From: an uncultured bacterium
Lineage (GTDB): Bacteria > Chlamydiota > Chlamydiia > Chlamydiales > VFKH01
DNA length: 64,000 nt
Direction of reading: 5' to 3'
NCBI GenBank assembly: GCA_964596685.1
Contig: CAZQVA010000002.1
Coordinates: 12,947 to 76,946, forward strand
Shown: positions 56,417 through 64,000 of the stretch, in pieces
Position numbering within the stretch: position 1 is the first letter of the stretch
How the letters are laid out: every line of letters begins with the position of its first letter
Translations under genes and position numbers: made by a program
Notes under the pieces: model-generated
Told to the model about the DNA's origin: nothing
Databases searched by the model: none
What the model saw: only the letters and a program-made list of their open reading frames with translations

Positions 56417-57298
56417 ATGTTGAAGCAATGTATTAGGAAAACTTTTGAGATGTTTGGCTACTCTTTAAATAAATCAAATGGTTCATTCGAAGCCAACCAA
56501 GACATTGGAAGGGATTATAAGGATGCTGATAATGTTTTGCCTAATTTTAAACTAAAAAAAGCAAGCTCCTCGTGTTGTTGTAGGGGGGGCACGTCAGCCG
56601 AATTTACCGAATTTTCTGTTTTTAATGGAGAAAGTCTATTAACGGAAGTTATTTATTATTCTCATTTAACCCTTTTAAAAATGTGTAAGCACTATTCGTT
56701 TAATACTGTATTGGACATCGGTAGTCATGAAAGGCGATGCACAAGGATTTTTGAGCATATTGGAAAAAACGTAACTACAGTTGAAATTGCACCTGGATAT
56801 GAAGCAGATTACCATGGTGATTATCTAAATCAAACATTTGAAGAGCCTTTTGATGCTATTTGGTGTAGTCAAACTTATGAGCATCAGAGAAATCCTGGAA
56901 TTTTTTTAGATAAGATTTTTGAAGATTTGAAAGAAGGAGGAGTCCTAGGTCTTACAGTTCCTTTTCAAATTGATAAAAATGTATGCTTTGGTCACATTAA
57001 TCTTACTTCACCTTTAATGTTAATTTACCATTTAGTATGTGCTGGATTTGATTGCTCTGGTATAGCTCTTAAAGTGTATAATGGCTTTATTGGGGTAATT
57101 TTAGAAAAAAAATACAATGGAATTGATAGGAAACGCCCTTCTGGGTCACTTCCCTTACAAGGGCAAATTGTTGACAATGCAAAAGAAATTATAGGTGATG
57201 AGATTTTTGACCGTTTACACGAGTCCTTTCCTTTCCTGGTAGCATATCCGACTGCTAACAATAAAATCACTTCAATCAATTGGGGCAATCCAATTTAG
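56417..57298 (+). CDS. Class I SAM-dependent methyltransferase
   Basis: The motif I-like VLDIGSHER and a post-I region are present, together with FDAIWCSQTYEHQRNP and LKEGGVLGLTVP. An AAGGAG ribosome-binding site lies 8 nt upstream. Confidence 0.65.
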   Translation: MLKQCIRKTFEMFGYSLNKSNGSFEANQDIGRDYKDADNVLPNFKLKKASSSCCCRGGTSAEFTEFSVFNGESLLTEVIYYSHLTLLKMCKHYSFNTVLDIGSHERRCTRIFEHIGKNVTTVEIAPGYEADYHGDYLNQTFEEPFDAIWCSQTYEHQRNPGIFLDKIFEDLKEGGVLGLTVPFQIDKNVCFGHINLTSPLMLIYHLVCAGFDCSGIALKVYNGFIGVILEKKYNGIDRKRPSGSLPLQGQIVDNAKEIIGDEIFDRLHESFPFLVAYPTANNKITSINWGNPI

Positions 57299-57526
57299 CT
57301 ATCAATCTGGGAGCGTTCCGAGGCAGCTAAGAGAGAGTTTGATTCGGCTACCTTGTGCAAGTTTGGTGGTCTCCTTTTTTTTCTGCGAGGCTATGATGGA
57401 GCGAAGCGACAAGCAAAGAATGGATACTCTCATAATAGGCCAATCCTAGACCACAACATGTCCTAGTGATACAACGCCTCTTCTTTAGGCGTGAGCTCAC
57501 GTTAAAGTATGAAATCTGGAGAAAAT

Positions 57527-58471
57527 ATGAATCGGAAAAGGATTTTGGTTACTGGTGGTGCGGGTTTTTTAGGCTCACACCTCTGTGAAAGATTACTGAC
57601 TTTAGGAAATGAAGTATTATGTTTAGATAACTTTTTTACTGGCTCAAAGGATAATATCCAGCACTTAATTCTGAATCCATTTTTTGAATTAATCAGACAT
57701 AACATTTGCGAACCGATTAAATTGGAAGTAGATGAGATTTATAATCTTGCATGCCCTGCCTCGCCTTTTCATTATCAACGATTTCCGGTGGAAACAGTTC
57801 GCACTAATGTTTTAGGTGCCGCAAATGTACTGGAGCTAGCGCGACATTTTAAAATTAAGATATTTCAAGCCTCAACTAGTGAAGTGTATGGTGATCCACT
57901 ACAGCATCCTCAGCAAGAAAGTTATTGGGGGAACGTGAATCCCATTGGAATACGTTCCTGTTATGATGAAGGAAAACGCTGTGCAGAAACTTTATTTTTT
58001 GATTATAGCCGTCAATTTCAGATCCCCATCAAAGTGGGGCGTATTTTCAATACATATGGCCCACACATGAACGTGAATGACGGTCGAGTTGTTTCCAATT
58101 TTATTATTCAAGCGTTAAAAGGAGAGAATATTACTATCTATGGAAATGGCCGGCAAACGCGTTCTTTTTGTTATGTTGATGACCTGATTGATGGGATCAT
58201 CCGCTTAATGGCAACTGATTCTGAGGTGGTCGGCCCCGTAAATATAGGTAATCCTACTGAGTTTTCAATGCTTGAGTTGGCAGAAGAAGTGATTTCATTA
58301 ACGCGTTCTTCTTCAAAAATTGTTTTTCAATCGTTGCCAGCTGACGATCCTAAACAACGTCAGCCAGATATTTCCTTAGCACAGACTTTATTTGGCTGGC
58401 AGCCAAAAGTACCTTTGAAGGAAGGATTGTTAAAAACGATTGAGTATTTCACTAAACGCTTGGACATATAA
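57527..58471 (+). CDS. uxs: UDP-glucuronate decarboxylase (UDP-xylose synthase)
   Basis: The protein is collinear with UXS/ArnA-C enzymes. Motifs are [42 protein letters not shown] (YxxxK), RIFNTYGP and [10 protein letters not shown]. The start was set at ATG 57527, with a GGAG upstream. Confidence 0.9.
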
Positions 58472-58481
58472 AGACTTTGAT

Positions 58482-61782: not shown

Positions 61783-62765
61783 AGTGTTTAGTAACGGGTG
61801 GTGCAGGATTTATTGGTAGTCACTTGTGTGAAGAATTACTTAAGAAGGGGCATCGCGTTCATGCCATCGATAACTTGCGCGGTGGGCACCTTAAGAATCT
61901 TTCTAGCTTTAAAGAGAATCCCTTTTTCGAGTTTAAGCAAGTGGATATTCGCGATAGAGATGCTTTAAATGCCTATGTTCAACAAGGGTTTGATTGGGTT
62001 TTTCACCTAGCCGCGATGGCTGATATCGTCCCCTCTATTGAACAGCCCAAAGAATACTTTGAAGTGAATGTTGATGGGACCTTTAACGTCTTAGAGGCCG
62101 CTAAAAGTATAGGGGTAAAGAGATTTCTCTATGCAGCCTCTTCTTCCTGCTATGGGATACCTGATACGTATCCTACGGCAGAAAATGCTTCGATTAGGCC
62201 ACAGTATCCTTATGCATTAACAAAGTATCTAGGGGAAGAGCTCGTCATGCATTGGGCTCAAGTATATAAGCTTCCTGCAGTTTCTTTAAGGCTTTTTAAT
62301 GTTTTTGGGCCAAGAGCACGTACAACAGGTTCTTATGGAGCTGTCTTTGGGGTATTTATTGCTCAAAAGCTCAACAATAAGCCTTTAACAGTTGTTGGTG
62401 ATGGATCGCAAAGCCGGGATTTTACCTTTGTAAAAGATGTGGTTAATGCTTTTATTGCTGCTGCTGAATCGGATTGTGTCCAGGAAATTTTTAATGTAGG
62501 CAGTGGGGGGCATTACACAGTTAATCATCTTGTTGAATTATTGGGTGGTGAGAAGGTTTTTATTCCCAAACGTCCAGGAGAGCCAGACTGTACATTTGCT
62601 GATACACAAAAAATCACAACAACACTGAAGTGGACGCCTAAAGTAAGTTTTGAAGAGGGTGTCAAGCAATTGATGGAGCATCTTGACGACTTTAGAAATG
62701 CCCCTGTATGGGATCCTGAATCAATTAAGGAAGCAACAAAAAATTGGTTTAAATATTTATCTTAA
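61779..62765 (+). CDS. Extended-SDR NAD-dependent sugar epimerase/dehydratase (GalE-like)
   Basis: VTGGAGFIGSHL, SSSCYG and YALTKYLGE (YxxxK) are present. It overlaps the upstream gene by 4 nt. Confidence 0.8.
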   Translation: MKCLVTGGAGFIGSHLCEELLKKGHRVHAIDNLRGGHLKNLSSFKENPFFEFKQVDIRDRDALNAYVQQGFDWVFHLAAMADIVPSIEQPKEYFEVNVDGTFNVLEAAKSIGVKRFLYAASSSCYGIPDTYPTAENASIRPQYPYALTKYLGEELVMHWAQVYKLPAVSLRLFNVFGPRARTTGSYGAVFGVFIAQKLNNKPLTVVGDGSQSRDFTFVKDVVNAFIAAAESDCVQEIFNVGSGGHYTVNHLVELLGGEKVFIPKRPGEPDCTFADTQKITTTLKWTPKVSFEEGVKQLMEHLDDFRNAPVWDPESIKEATKNWFKYLS

Positions 62766-62783
62766 GCGATTGAGGCGATTGAA

Positions 62784-63356
62784 ATGTTTACACAGAGATT
62801 TAACGAGTTAGCCAAAGCATATAAAGAGCTGCAAAGCACACAGAAAGATGGATCTGCTATTACAGAGACAGCGGCATATAGTGCATGGCATCAAGCATTG
62901 GTCAATGTGAAGGAAAAGCGACGCTTTGTCTATGTAGTTGGTAATGGAGGGAGCGCAGGACTGGCATCCCACTTTCAGAACGATCTCATCAAAGCACTTA
63001 AGATCCCTGCGTACACCTTTTATGATTCTAATCTCATCACCTGTTTAGCAAATGATTATGGGTATGAACATGTCTTTAGTACGCCTCTTGAATTGATGGG
63101 GCATAAGGATGATGTGCTTATTGCAATCAGTAGTTCTGGTAAATCTCCCAATATTTTAAATGCGGTGCAAGCGGCAAAAAAACAGCAGATGACGATCATC
63201 ACCTTAAGTGGTTTTGCAGCAGATAACCCACTAAGAAGCACTGGAGATGTGAATTTTTATATTCCATCACACGAGTATGGATTGGTCGAAGGAGCACATT
63301 TTCTGATACTGCACACATTAGTTGATTATTTTTCCTCATTTCGAGACAGATCATGA
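62784..63356 (+). CDS. gmhA: SIS-domain phosphoheptose isomerase (GmhA-like)
   Basis: VVGNGGSAGLASHFQNDL and ISSSGKSPNILNAV are present. The size of 190 aa fits GmhA. Confidence 0.75.
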   Translation: MFTQRFNELAKAYKELQSTQKDGSAITETAAYSAWHQALVNVKEKRRFVYVVGNGGSAGLASHFQNDLIKALKIPAYTFYDSNLITCLANDYGYEHVFSTPLELMGHKDDVLIAISSSGKSPNILNAVQAAKKQQMTIITLSGFAADNPLRSTGDVNFYIPSHEYGLVEGAHFLILHTLVDYFSSFRDRS

Positions 63357-64000
63357 CAGAAAAAATTAAATCTTTTGAGCAATTACAGGCATTATTGAAT
63401 CAGCAACGTGCAGAGGGGAAGCGCATTGTGCAGTGTCATGGTGTTTTTGATCTCCTTCACCCAGGGCACATTCGTCATTTTAGAGCGGCTAAGCAAAAGG
63501 GTGATGTCCTCGTAGTCACCATTACTCCCGACCGCTTTGTTAATAAGGGCCCGGGGCGTCCTGTATTTACAGAAAAACTACGCCTAGAAACTTTAGCAGC
63601 ACTGCAACATATTGATTATGTTGTTTTGAATGACACACCAGATGCGGTCTATGCAATTGAAAAAGTGCGCCCTCATATCTATGCAAAAGGGCTAGAGTAC
63701 CAGTCGCATGAAAAGGATGTGACAGGAAAAATTGCAGAAGAGGTCAATGAAGTCGAGCGGCATGGTGGGCAAGTTTATTACACTGATGATATTGTCTTTA
63801 GTTCTTCTTCCCTCTTAAATCGTCATTTTGATCCTTTACCTCCTGAAACTGATGCTTATGTCAGTCACTTGAAGGGACGTTTTACAGCTGAGGACTTTTT
63901 AAATACGATTGAAAGCTTAAGGGATTTAAAGGTCCTGGTTGTCGGAGATGCAATTATTGACGAGTATCAGTATGTCGCTCCTTTGGGTCAGTCGGGCAAA
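63353..64000 (+). CDS. Bifunctional HldE/RfaE-like protein, partial, with domain order reversed (N-terminal nucleotidyltransferase, then PfkB kinase)
   Basis: This ORF is not in the ORF track because it runs off the window. The start forms an ATGA overlap with the gmhA stop. The cytidylyltransferase-type motif CHGVFDLLHPGHIRHF lies at the N-terminus. From about residue 195, LKVLVVGDAIIDEYQYV matches the start of PfkB/RfaE domain I. Confidence 0.7.
   Translation, partial: MTEKIKSFEQLQALLNQQRAEGKRIVQCHGVFDLLHPGHIRHFRAAKQKGDVLVVTITPDRFVNKGPGRPVFTEKLRLETLAALQHIDYVVLNDTPDAVYAIEKVRPHIYAKGLEYQSHEKDVTGKIAEEVNEVERHGGQVYYTDDIVFSSSSLLNRHFDPLPPETDAYVSHLKGRFTAEDFLNTIESLRDLKVLVVGDAIIDEYQYVAPLGQSGK

Follow-up and report, generated by a model that had tools for sequence, protein, structure and literature searches.

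Nucleotidyltransferases of the HldE type bear the motif (F/L)XXGXSTT (PMC11461863). Coxiella burnetii encodes an HldE-like protein with reversed domains, CBU0678, which is needed for virenose, a non-heptose sugar, and a second protein, CBU1655, which makes the heptose of the core (PMC5843353, PMC13252051). In other systems, NDP-4-keto sugars are proposed to receive their C-4 acetyl branches from the E1alpha/E1beta pairs AviB1/B2, Pau11/12, and EvdU5/S3, with ketoreduction coming after branching (PMC4753412, PMC10338323).

Here, we describe a cluster of sugar-building genes, found at the end of a 64,000-nt stretch of DNA (hereafter, the window; Table 1) from an environmental chlamydia-like bacterium. 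The cluster is real and hints that chlamydia-like bacteria have more surface sugars than the minimal coat of pathogenic Chlamydia offers. As the best explanation of the whole, held with about even confidence, we propose that the locus is a composite surface-glycan cluster of three pieces in an environmental (non-Chlamydiaceae) chlamydia-like genome. The best reading of its output is a modified, probably C-branched, heptose-like NDP-sugar that enters a surface glycan together with xylose.

Table 1. Features of the window relevant to the glycan cluster
Feature	Position	Strand	Basis
Wzy_C (O-antigen ligase/polymerase family) membrane protein	45087-46355	+	PF04932, 8.2e-25
IS5-family insertion sequence, decayed	55276..56216	+	Terminal inverted repeats and transposase pieces
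MT1, class I SAM-methyltransferase-like	56417-57298	+	Pfam Methyltransf_23
Assembly break point, MT1-UXS spacer	57432..57455	.	Ends of independent public contigs
UXS, UDP-glucuronate decarboxylase (UDP-xylose synthase)	57509-58471	+	PDB 2b69 match
GT90 (CAP10/POGLUT family) glycosyltransferase	58482-59513	+	PF05686
ORF4, GT-B fold glycosyltransferase	59514-60620	+	AF2 model and PDB fold comparison
SDR-A, extended SDR	60793-61782	+	Pfam; PDB match; first gene of conserved module
SDR-B, GalE-type extended SDR (epimerase-like)	61779-62765	+	Pfam, NCBIfam, PDB
SIS, GmhA-like sugar-phosphate isomerase	62784-63356	+	Pfam, TIGR00441, PDB
Bifunctional nucleotidyltransferase-PfkB kinase (NT-PfkB), N-terminal part	63353..64000	+	Cut by window end

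Organisation of the cluster

An earlier sequence-only reading described eight co-directional genes forming a glycan and nucleotide-sugar cluster, and this description holds: all eight ORFs are present on the + strand where it had placed them (56417-64000), and most had been named correctly. The gaps between genes (228, 10, 0, 172, -4, 18, and -4 nt) split the cluster into three blocks: MT1; UXS, GT90, and ORF4; and SDR-A onward. The first four genes have GC contents of 34.5-38.6% (z = -2.6 to -4.6 relative to 45 other genes of the window, at 44.0 +/- 2.0%), and SDR-A, SDR-B, and the SIS isomerase have 40-41%. Across 56217-60620, GC is 37.6%, compared with a minimum of 41.4% among equal-size windows of the first 55 kb. 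The single-line GC counts behind an earlier suggestion of mosaic origin are reproduced exactly, and the gene-level statistics agree with them; the left flank is compositionally deviant, but the suggestion itself fails for the heptose-like half, which is near native in GC and resembles mostly Chlamydiota-labelled loci in its relatives and gene order. Low GC is confined to the two flanks of the conserved module.

In the composite explanation, piece 1 would be a dead IS5-family element with the orphan methyltransferase MT1; piece 2 would be a low-GC three-gene cassette (UXS-GT90-GT-B); and piece 3 would be a lineage-typical chlamydial module (SDR-A, SDR-B, isomerase, NT/PfkB, E1alpha, E1beta, SDR-C, methyltransferase, and Zn-ADH). 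Elsewhere, the window also encodes a eukaryote-like UCH hydrolase and a HEAT-repeat protein.

The conserved module

The cluster extends ~9 kb beyond the window and is thereby twice as long as the part first described. The public contig L001, identical to the window over their overlap (3199/3199 nt), encodes the full-length NT-PfkB protein (508 aa; a cytidylyltransferase-like domain, then a PfkB domain), a ThDP pair (E1alpha and E1beta), a 4,6-dehydratase-like SDR (SDR-C), a second methyltransferase (MT2), Zn-ADH, GT2, an ISKra4 fragment, and an RmlD-like protein. NT-PfkB has 577 confirmed relatives among species-representative genomes, the best ~50 of which are mostly labelled Chlamydiota. The order SDR-SDR-SIS-NT/kinase-E1ab-SDR-MT(-ADH) is dominant in the ~50 best-matching loci; among the 38 loci with enough downstream sequence, E1ab is found in 27, SDR-C in 36, MT2 in 30, and ADH in 17. 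The best relatives of the module genes, in best-matching loci mostly labelled Chlamydiota, are 50-76% identical (57-74% for SDR-A and its counterparts in chlamydial loci). This shared order in mostly Chlamydiota-labelled loci argues that the core is lineage-typical and not a foreign island.

Both SDRs are extended SDRs by Pfam, as had been read. SDR-A is best matched in the PDB by 6vo6/6vo8 (E=5e-37), and SDR-B by Pal (6bwl, 2e-50) and by GalE and UDP-GlcA 4-epimerase structures. We do not retain the assignment of the next two genes as gmhA and hldE-like genes for ADP-heptose synthesis. The isomerase scores 99 bits against TIGR00441 (cut-off 209), NT-PfkB scores 151 bits against the NCBIfam HldE model (cut-off 521), and no enzyme of the cluster reaches a heptose-pathway equivalog cut-off. 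In contrast to GmhA, which has E65 and Q172, the isomerase family has Asp (69/69 scorable orthologues) and Glu (68/68) at these positions and forms a distinct subfamily; in contrast to HldE, NT-PfkB has its domains in reversed order. Because positions 65 and 172 are replaced, the substrate of the isomerase could differ, and these replacements, the sub-cut-off scores, and the reversed domains together make heptose a working hypothesis only. Judged by sequence, both proteins are paralogue-level homologues of heptose enzymes, not equivalogs. The earlier prediction of activated heptose plus UDP-xylose accordingly keeps its xylose synthase, and its heptose enzymes fall below equivalog level.

The alternative that survives best, which we consider unlikely but worth real weight, keeps the same architecture and gives the module a product other than heptose. 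On this view, the substrate activated by the isomerase (D65/E172) and by the reversed NT-kinase would be another ketose-derived sugar, such as a hexose, an octose, or, on the pattern of the virenose region of Coxiella, a C-branched deoxysugar precursor. Scores far under the cut-offs of all heptose-pathway models and the family-wide changes at GmhA positions 65 and 172 both favour it, as does the NT domain, which reads 'VFSSS' at the HldE-type (F/L)XXGXSTT site (PMC11461863). GmhB is also absent nearby (tblastn for a GmhB-type phosphatase was negative in the window and 89 loci), and CBU0678, with the same reversed architecture as NT-PfkB, is required for virenose, core heptose being the work of CBU1655. 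Yet the nearest solved structures are heptose-pathway enzymes: the top 13 PDB matches of the isomerase are all GmhA (best E=6e-24), followed by two DiaA chains, and the two NT-PfkB domains are best matched by HldC (5e-13) and HldA (9e-10). Moreover, the isomerase family retains H61, H180, and the SIS phosphate-binding motifs, the HxGH and GAGD motifs of NT-PfkB are invariant (17 sequences), and genes of the heptosyltransferase family GT9 recurrently adjoin the module (<=10 kb away in eight loci).

Under the preferred reading of a heptose-like, C-branched sugar, we infer the following chemistry. The isomerase would convert a ketose phosphate (sedoheptulose 7-phosphate being the likeliest) to an aldose phosphate; the PfkB domain would phosphorylate it at the anomeric position; the distal phosphate would be taken off by a phosphatase encoded elsewhere; and the nucleotidyltransferase domain would yield the NDP-sugar. 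This product would be oxidised and epimerised by SDR-A and SDR-B, and SDR-C would form a 4-keto-6-deoxy intermediate. The E1alpha/E1beta pair past the window alters the predicted chemistry: this PDH-E1-like pair may, as proposed for AviB1/B2, Pau11/12, and EvdU5/S3, add a pyruvate-derived two-carbon acetyl branch, which Zn-ADH would turn into a hydroxyethyl group, and the module methyltransferase would methylate the sugar. GT2, GT90, and GT-B would assemble the glycan on a lipid carrier; after export, a Wzy_C-family ligase would join it to lipid A-core or another acceptor.

The xylose cassette

UXS (probable start, ATG 57527) matches human UXS1 (PDB 2b69) over its full length (E=2e-116), and its relatives at 70-75% identity number in the thousands. 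Many of these are labelled UDP-glucuronate decarboxylase, Chlamydiota MAG proteins among them; by these comparisons, UXS is a bona fide UDP-xylose synthase, as had been claimed. The GT90/CAP10 assignment is borne out by PF05686 (85 bits, cut-off 24) and by PDB matches to POGLUT2 (E=3e-16), POGLUT1, and Rumi; many of the 72 GT90 relatives (best identity 46%) come from Chlamydiota MAGs. ORF4, previously a possible GT-B transferase, has no Pfam match and belongs to a family (948 representative clusters) without a Pfam model. The top 50 listed PDB fold matches for its AF2 model (pLDDT 94.3, pTM 0.92) are all GT-B proteins (PimA, WaaG, BshA; TM 0.6-0.68), and, on this model, it is a GT-B glycosyltransferase.

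UXS would convert UDP-glucuronate to UDP-xylose, and GT90 and GT-B would add residues to an acceptor, one of them probably adding xylose. Since GT90- and ORF4-type genes adjoin the module in other loci without UXS, GT90 is not necessarily a xylosyltransferase, and the donor of each transferase is not fixed. The module order is common in Chlamydiota-labelled loci, and the UXS-GT90-GT-B trio recurs in one other contig, L090 (75%, 40%, and 30% identity), where it stands without the module. That independence could mean that the cassette glycosylates bacterial surface or host proteins, not LPS, in the manner of POGLUT1-3. The only solved relatives of GT90 are indeed protein O-glucosyltransferases, POGLUT1/Rumi also accepts UDP-xylose, and the eukaryote-like proteins of the window point the same way. 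We nevertheless regard this as improbable: the closest homologues of GT90 (40-42% identity) belong to glycan clusters, in the company of the module, GT2/GT9, and an ABC exporter, and in another chlamydial MAG UXS adjoins a Wza-type polysaccharide exporter.

Surface delivery

For the surface glycan that we favour, the window offers lpxA and lpxC, for lipid A, at 28-30 kb and, at 45 kb, the ligase-family gene already noted in the sequence-only reading. The latter sits among housekeeping genes 10 kb upstream of the cluster and outside it, as a candidate partner. Together, these genes make a glycoconjugate larger than a Kdo-only LOS plausible, in line with the earlier prediction. As also reported earlier, ugd and gmhB were not found in the window (all ORFs of 270 aa or longer compared with Pfam or NCBIfam), and the available ~73 kb of this genome showed no ugd, initiating phosphoglycosyltransferase, Wzx, or ABC exporter. 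About 25 loci have MsbA/PglK-like ABC exporters next to the module, and Simkaniaceae-type loci (L004 and relatives) have Wzy_C and GT4 genes there, their Wzy_C showing no detectable similarity to that of the window.

Insertion sequence and assembly junction

The IS is real and, within the window, flanks the cluster on a single side. Its 20-bp terminal inverted repeats (55276-55295 and 56197-56216) match at 19/20 positions, and its transposase pieces are recognised by HTH_Tnp_4 (3.7e-16), DDE_Tnp_4 (2.1e-8), and transpos_IS5_4. One in-frame stop and two frameshifts disrupt the transposase; the copy is dead, and the window holds no second copy. The neighbouring MT1 is confirmed as SAM-methyltransferase-like (Methyltransf_23, 31.9 bits, cut-off 27), is the most GC-poor gene of the cluster (34.5%, z = -4.6), yielded no relatives by tblastn of the fetched loci, and is a singleton in clustering.

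Contigs L093, L094, and L095 all stop at 57455, and L003 begins at 57432; no repeat of the MT1-UXS spacer was found, and the source assembly is the only confirmation of the MT1-UXS junction. This break, shared by public assemblies of several runs, would fit a contaminant or assembly chimera attached to a presumed chlamydial backbone, or the very recent arrival of the whole cluster as a foreign island, as would the low GC at 56.2-60.6 kb and the IS remnants on both sides, but we consider either highly improbable: the nine module genes match Chlamydiota-labelled loci in relatives and order at near-native GC, relatives of GT90, ORF4, and UXS are present in Chlamydiota MAGs, and the upstream and downstream contig sets overlap by 24 nt, are both 100% identical to the window, and are both represented in SRR14271336 and in ERR7015365.

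Cluster layout, composition, and borders

Translation of the open reading frames (ORFs) recovers all eight plus-strand genes that the sequence-only reading had placed beyond the insertion sequence (IS), and these fall into three blocks (see the table). The first is a SAM methyltransferase gene (MT1), followed by a gap of 228 nt. The second holds the UDP-xylose synthase gene (UXS), a GT90 gene, and an unnamed glycosyltransferase gene (ORF4), with internal gaps of 10 and 0 nt and 172 nt after the last. The third comprises two extended-SDR genes (SDR-A and SDR-B), a gene for a GmhA-like isomerase (SIS), and one for an HldE-like nucleotidyltransferase-PfkB protein (NT/kinase), at spacings of -4, 18, and -4 nt.

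Following the sequence past 64 kb, as that reading had proposed, is possible with a public contig (L001) that matches the window without a difference along 3199 nt and hence continues it. The cluster runs on there, first with a PDH-type E1alpha/E1beta pair downstream of NT/kinase and then with a third SDR gene (SDR-C), a second methyltransferase gene (MT2), and a Zn-alcohol dehydrogenase gene (Zn-ADH). The nine genes from SDR-A to Zn-ADH are here called the module.

Features of the window and of related contigs (L001 continues the window; L087, L090, and L091 are other public loci)
Feature	Sequence	Position	Strand	Remark
RecB-like and RecC-like genes	window	150-5880	-	at one window end
Large ORF, 560 aa	window	17187-18869	-	no Pfam/NCBIfam match
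GGDEF diguanylate cyclase domain protein	window	24084-25016	-	
fmt, lpxA, fabZ-sized ORF, lpxC, two unknown ORFs, lnt	window	27032-34052	-	in that order
lpxA and lpxC	window	27982-30158	-	
Large ORF, 415 aa	window	30236-31483	-	no Pfam/NCBIfam match
Large ORF, 420 aa	window	38785-40047	+	no Pfam/NCBIfam match
Ubiquitin C-terminal hydrolase domain (UCH, PF00443)	window	43238-44362		eukaryote-type
tRNA-Thr and tRNA-Tyr	window	44432-44673		immediately upstream of Wzy_C gene
Wzy_C-GT2 stretch	window	45087-47716		
Wzy_C gene	window	45087-46355		10 kb upstream of cluster
GT2 gene	window	46931-47716	-	convergent, just downstream of Wzy_C gene
HEAT-repeat protein	window	51391-52983		
RecD2-type helicase	window	52990-55134	+	directly abuts IS remnant
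IS5-family element, inverted repeats	window	55276-55295 and 56197-56216		20 bp, 19/20 matching; IS domains recognisable
MT1 (block 1)	window	56417-57298	+	
Assembly break	window	57432-57455		MT1-UXS spacer
UXS-GT90-ORF4 (block 2)	window	57527-60620	+	
SDR-A, SDR-B, SIS, NT/kinase (block 3)	window	60793 to window end	+	
Cluster past the window	L001	4478-12597		~64.9-73.0 kb in extended window coordinates
E1alpha	L001	4478-5410		PDH-type
E1beta	L001	5423-6514		PDH-type
SDR-C	L001			after E1alpha/E1beta; RmlB-like 4,6-dehydratase-type; PDB 6bi4, E=1e-50
MT2	L001			methyltransferase, 219 aa
Zn-ADH	L001			Zn-alcohol dehydrogenase
GT2 glycosyltransferase	L001			low GC
ISKra4 transposase fragment	L001	10570-10887		
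RmlD-like gene	L001			low GC
GT9 gene	L087	10001-13174		region in which the GT9 gene directly follows GT90 and ORF4-type genes, beside module
UXS-GT90-ORF4-like trio	L090	1255-4344		75%, 40%, and 30% identity
UXS, Wza-type export protein, 839-aa unknown protein	L091	6463-10939		UXS 71% identical

The single-line GC counts of the sequence-only reading were reproduced exactly. Against a mean of 44.0 +/- 2.0% for the 45 other genes of the window, MT1, UXS, GT90, and ORF4 have a GC content of 34.5-38.6%, and SDR-A, SDR-B, and SIS one of 40-41%. Across the window and L001, module genes span 39.5-45.3%, close to the native value, and past the module the GT2 and RmlD-like genes fall back to ~35%. The cluster is thus a near-native core bracketed by two low-GC accessory patches, each with an IS remnant beside it. 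The upstream IS5-family transposase frame is broken three times (one in-frame stop and two frameshifts), so that this is a dead copy, a remnant without an intact DDE_Tnp_4 transposase rather than an active element, and the window holds no second copy. Scans for promoters and terminators over 55-64 kb gave counts no higher than in shuffled sequence, an Rfam scan of 54-64 kb gave no match, and no tRNA lies at the cluster border. The cluster is real, and in its general make-up, that of a polysaccharide-type locus whose accessory genes are low in GC, it is ordinary.

The MT1-UXS spacer is where public assemblies, from at least four sequencing runs, invariably break: upstream contigs end at 57455 and the downstream contig starts at 57432, an overlap of 24 nt. 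Independent public contigs match both the stretch from core genes through RecD2 and the IS to MT1 and that from UXS to GT2 without mismatch, and a search of the window and the fetched loci turned up no repeat copy of the spacer. Strain heterogeneity, some strains carrying the UXS cassette and others not, may lie behind the break, as may a repeat in another part of the genome. Since both sides of the break show chlamydial affinity, contamination is an unlikely explanation.

The xylose cassette

The assignment of UXS holds: residues 7-319, in effect the full length, match the human UXS1 structures 2b69, 4gll, and 4m55 at E=2e-116, and the next-best SDR family reaches only 1e-39, seventy-odd orders of magnitude weaker. 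The translation carries the extended-SDR motifs GxxGxxG, S/T-x-E, and YxxxK (the last as YDEGK), and relatives at 70-75% identity number in the thousands, many of them labelled UDP-glucuronate decarboxylase. Homology shows an enzyme predicted to make UDP-xylose. As for UDP-glucuronate supply, the absence of ugd noted earlier extends to all window ORFs of at least 270 aa and to L001, none of which has a UDP-glucose dehydrogenase domain. Two apparent super-hits of UXS (P0200 and P0201) were dropped as an internally duplicated protein in an unrelated cluster.

The GT90 protein scores 85.3 bits against a Pfam gathering score of 24 (PF05686), and its only solved relatives are POGLUT2 (3.3e-16), POGLUT1, and Rumi. 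It resembles the eukaryotic GT90 enzymes (POGLUT1/Rumi, POGLUT2/3, and Cryptococcus Cap10/Cxt1) in Pfam family, in nearest structures, and in having a UDP-xylose enzyme next to it; Rumi/POGLUT1 and Cxt1 use UDP-xylose. It differs in its bacterial cytoplasmic context, in its low identity to POGLUT, and in that the homologues nearest to it lie in glycan clusters that have no UXS gene. These homologues (40-42% identity, in loci L087 and L088) adjoin the module, and UXS adjoins GT90 in the window and in L090 but in neither of them. The reading of GT90 as necessarily a xylosyltransferase is weakened for this reason.

By sequence, ORF4 belongs to no curated glycosyltransferase family. It has no Pfam or PDB sequence match, a profile of its relatives finds nothing among PDB sequences, single relatives give only faint Glyco_trans_4_4 and Glyco_trans_1_4 matches, and hhalign against one GT4 protein returns a probability of 0.5%. 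An AlphaFold (AF2) model built on 50 of the 948 representative clusters of the family (a single-sequence model, pLDDT 32, was discarded) reached pLDDT 94.3 and pTM 0.92. The best 50 PDB matches listed by Foldseek for it are all GT-B transferases, including PimA, WaaG, and BshA (probability 1.00, TM up to 0.68), which turns the possible GT-B transferase of the sequence-only reading into a confirmed one.

A true UXS gene lies within 10 kb of the module only in the window locus and in two Omnitrophota loci; UXS is also present in other Chlamydiota metagenome-assembled genomes (MAGs). In L090, a 6.5-kb contig of 35% GC, the trio stands without the module and adjoins NYN_YacP and a long GreA-like gene, a long GreA being a typical chlamydial trait. 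Given this recurrence, UXS-GT90-GT-B behaves as a small recurring cassette and is plausibly the portion of the locus that moves horizontally. In the Chlamydiales MAG contig JACPOL010000004.1 (L091), a UXS gene stands beside the gene for a polysaccharide export protein of the Wza type, and a gene of the UDP-glucose pyrophosphorylase family (UDPGP) lies at the edge of the locus; the pairing with Wza suggests a xylose-containing exported polysaccharide in other chlamydiae.

Enzymes of the heptose-like module

SDR-B is GalE-like, and the best solved relative of SDR-A is 6vo6/6vo8 (E=5e-37), which we take to be Cj1427, the GDP-heptose C4-dehydrogenase of Campylobacter jejuni.

SIS has the SIS fold with GmhA as nearest solved relative: 13 of its top 15 PDB matches are phosphoheptose isomerases (best E=6e-24) and the last two are DiaA. 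It falls well below the NCBIfam equivalog cut-offs for GmhA (99.4 against 209.45 for TIGR00441, 105.7 against 276 for NF010546). Among 69 aligned orthologues from module-bearing loci, E65 is replaced by Asp (69/69) and Q172 by Glu (68/68), with H61 and H180 retained, so that the catalytic and metal-binding set of GmhA (H61, E65, Q172, H180) is not kept intact. Numbering follows E. coli GmhA, and PDB alignments give the same two substitutions.

NT/kinase, 508 aa at full length, has the domain order of HldE reversed, with CTP_transf_like (5-147) first and PfkB (186-491) second. Its scores are 151 against 521 for the HldE equivalog NF008454, 107 against 345 for rfaE_dom_I, and 97 against 181.5 for rfaE_dom_II, and among solved structures it is closest to HldC (5e-13) and HldA (9e-10). 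Both catalytic domains appear intact, HxGH (H36, G38, H39) and GAGD (G451-A452-G453-D454) being invariant in 17 family members. Low equivalog scores combined with these nearest structures mark SIS and NT/kinase as members of a separate family that is kin to the heptose enzymes, not as those enzymes themselves. The names gmhA and hldE-like used in the sequence-only reading are therefore right as to kinship (GmhA, HldC, and HldA being the nearest structures) and do not stand for equivalence, given scores below cut-off, reversed domains, and replaced E65 and Q172.

E1alpha and E1beta score below the NCBIfam PDH E1 cut-offs (254 against 394 and 302 against 321). They stand in a nucleotide-sugar cluster beside an SDR of the type that forms 4-keto sugars, an arrangement kept in 27 of 38 informative loci. 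A role for the pair upstream, in making a ketose phosphate, was rejected because the SDR-SDR-SIS-NT/kinase set lacks it in many loci.

Distribution of the module

NT/kinase has relatives at ~60% identity that carry the names Chlamydiales, Parachlamydiales, Simkaniaceae, and Neptunochlamydia. A search in which each species was represented by a single genome, a set that does not include the source genome, confirmed 577 relatives of NT/kinase. The best ~50 (50-62% identity) are mostly labelled Chlamydiota; the next, at 42-46%, come from Omnitrophota, Rokuibacteriota, Elusimicrobia, Chloroflexota, and some archaea. Gene presence and order, established by tblastn of all cluster proteins, show SDR-A, SDR-B, SIS, and NT/kinase together almost everywhere in the fetched loci. 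The dominant order in chlamydial-type loci is SDR-A, SDR-B, SIS, NT/kinase, E1alpha, E1beta, SDR-C, MT2, with or without ADH, and in other phyla it is SDR-B, NT/kinase, SIS, SDR-A. Loci with enough downstream sequence hold the E1 pair in 27/38 cases, SDR-C in 36/38, MT2 in 30/38, and ADH in 17/38. Within 10 kb of the module, MsbA/PglK-like ABC exporters and RmlD-like genes each occur in ~25 loci, GT9 (heptosyltransferase-family) genes in eight (L087, L036, L042, L045, L046, L047, L053, and L057), and Wzy_C and GT4 genes in Simkaniaceae-type loci.

The check across genomes that the sequence-only reading had called for thus finds the module in ~50 best-matching loci, mostly labelled Chlamydiota. 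Their labels and the dominant gene order make the heptose-like half a lineage-typical chlamydial module and not a foreign insert. Of the mosaic horizontal origin that had been proposed, the xylose cassette, low in GC and recurring in L090, remains as a plausible case, whereas the heptose-like half, with near-native GC, Chlamydiota relatives, and conserved order, does not fit it. The chlamydial label of this backbone draws on how its homologues are named, on gene order, and on context. As a conserved and uncharacterised set across environmental chlamydiae the module is notable, and we found no published description of it in the literature searched on O-antigen, heptose, and xylose in these organisms.

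Relation to known systems

By gene types, the closest studied system is the CBU0674-0678 group of Coxiella burnetii. Its virenose/O-antigen region shares four gene types with the module, namely CBU0674 (phosphoheptose isomerase-like), the SDRs CBU0676 and CBU0677, and the HldE-like CBU0678, in which the nucleotidyltransferase precedes the kinase as in NT/kinase. These genes are part of a locus for the outer glycan of LPS, alongside a canonical HldE that is encoded separately, and genetic work shows CBU0678 to be essential for full-length LPS (PMC5843353, PMC13552124); virenose depends on it and core heptose does not. An origin in Alphaproteobacteria is reported for the Coxiella gene, and Coxiella is absent from the 80 best NT/kinase loci of the 577 relatives. 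The descriptions of the Coxiella locus make no mention of an E1alpha/E1beta pair (PMC5843353, PMC13552124), which here follows NT/kinase.

The ADP-heptose pathway (GmhA/HldE) resembles the module in the SIS fold, in HldA and HldC as best matches of the kinase and nucleotidyltransferase, and in the retained HxGH and GAGD. The module departs from it in its sub-cut-off scores, reversed domains, and substituted E65 and Q172, and in the additional enzymes that follow (E1 pair, dehydratase, methyltransferase, and ADH); neither GmhB near the module nor an HldD equivalog was found. In C. jejuni, capsular GDP-heptose is modified by the C4-dehydrogenase Cj1427, a 4,6-dehydratase, epimerases, and C4-reductases (PMC10680097). 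The logic is similar, with an activated heptose remodelled by several SDRs (C4 oxidation, 4,6-dehydration) before transfer, but in C. jejuni the kinase is of the GHMP type, the transferase is a GDP-forming one, and there is no ThDP enzyme for branching; the sequence relationship through SDR-A reaches only E=5e-37.

An E1 pair beside a 4,6-dehydratase-type SDR, a reductase, and a methyltransferase also occurs, as a likeness of gene types, in the actinomycete antibiotic pathways of avilamycin (AviB1/AviB2), paulomycin (Pau11/Pau12), and everninomicin (EvdU5/EvdS3). The last has a UXS-type decarboxylase (EvdS6) as keto-sugar supplier, and the window locus likewise has a UXS-family enzyme; that enzyme, however, is of the eukaryote/Bacteroides type, and most chlamydial loci have the E1 pair without UXS. 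The yersiniose of Gram-negative LPS depends on a single flavoprotein, YerE, not on an E1 pair. By analogy, then, the module might join the steps of an ADP-heptose pathway to heptose remodelling as in C. jejuni and to a C-branching step of the actinomycete kind. Among chlamydiae, a UDP-GlcA 4-epimerase-like gene of Protochlamydia amoebophila was noted in a 2011 study (PMC3220709). This gene sets a precedent in non-pathogenic members for sugar metabolism based on UDP-uronic acids, although the subject of that study was one gene and the evolution of plants rather than a cluster.

Proposed chemistry and surface delivery

Homology shows three transferases (GT90, GT-B, and GT2), an isomerase, kinase, and nucleotidyltransferase predicted to activate a sugar phosphate, and a dehydratase-type SDR side by side with a ThDP E1 pair. 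SIS would act on sedoheptulose-7-P, and we hypothesize that NT/kinase takes a glycero-manno-heptose phosphate, to which its nearest structures (HldA and HldC) and the GT9 genes in eight neighbourhoods point indirectly. SDR-C would yield a 4-keto-6-deoxy intermediate, to which the E1 pair would add a C2 acetyl branch from pyruvate, as AviB1/B2, Pau11/12, and EvdU5/S3 are proposed to do (PMC4753412, PMC10338323). The branch would be reduced by Zn-ADH and methylated by MT2, and the finished glycan would end on lipid A-core via a Wzy_C-family ligase.

Genes suited to the last step are present, the ligase-like gene noticed at 45 kb proving to be a Wzy_C gene, and lpxA and lpxC showing that lipid A biosynthesis genes are there. 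In the ~73 kb available for this genome, searches gave no GmhB, ugd, initiating transferase, or exporter. At 56.4-73 kb no initiating phosphoglycosyltransferase, flippase/ABC exporter, or ligase was found, so the cluster does not qualify as a complete O-antigen/LPS locus; relatives of the module, in contrast, have an adjacent ABC exporter and Wzy_C.

Pathogenic Chlamydia make a minimal lipooligosaccharide (LOS) of lipid A and Kdo. We put forward, as a reading less likely than not, that environmental chlamydiae as a group possess an undescribed NDP-sugar pathway (Asp/Glu GmhA-like isomerase, reversed HldE-like protein, three SDRs, and E1-like ThDP enzyme) leading to a two-carbon-branched, methylated deoxy-heptose of nine carbons on an O-antigen-like chain on lipid A, that the Kdo-only LOS is a derived, reduced state of the pathogens, and that the same four-gene core explains the need for CBU0678 in Coxiella phase I LPS.

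The window locus and the ~50 related loci suggest that environmental relatives keep a conserved nine-gene module for sugar activation and remodelling. Transferases adjoin it, in many cases together with exporter and ligase genes, implying a more elaborate surface glycan, one that could shape host range, recognition by amoebal and animal immune systems, and serology. If the module makes NDP-heptoses, ligands of the innate sensor ALPK1 would be produced inside host cells. Its core shares gene types with the C. burnetii locus genetically essential for virulent phase I LPS, and a tractable chlamydial enzyme set could help to solve the chemistry of that locus. To our knowledge, actinomycete antibiotics are the only products for which branching by an E1-type ThDP enzyme has been proposed; such branching in an envelope cluster of the Gram-negative type, if found, would extend that chemistry.

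Other genes in the window

The remaining genes include RecB-like and RecC-like genes, a HEAT-repeat protein, and three large ORFs with no Pfam or NCBIfam match. The order fmt-lpxA-lpxC-lnt resembles that of C. trachomatis CT530-CT534. A GGDEF diguanylate cyclase domain protein is encoded as well; c-di-GMP signalling is, as far as we know, not a feature of pathogenic Chlamydiaceae. The Wzy_C and GT2 area downstream of the two tRNA genes may be a second small glycan-related spot, and the UCH protein is likely a host-directed effector.
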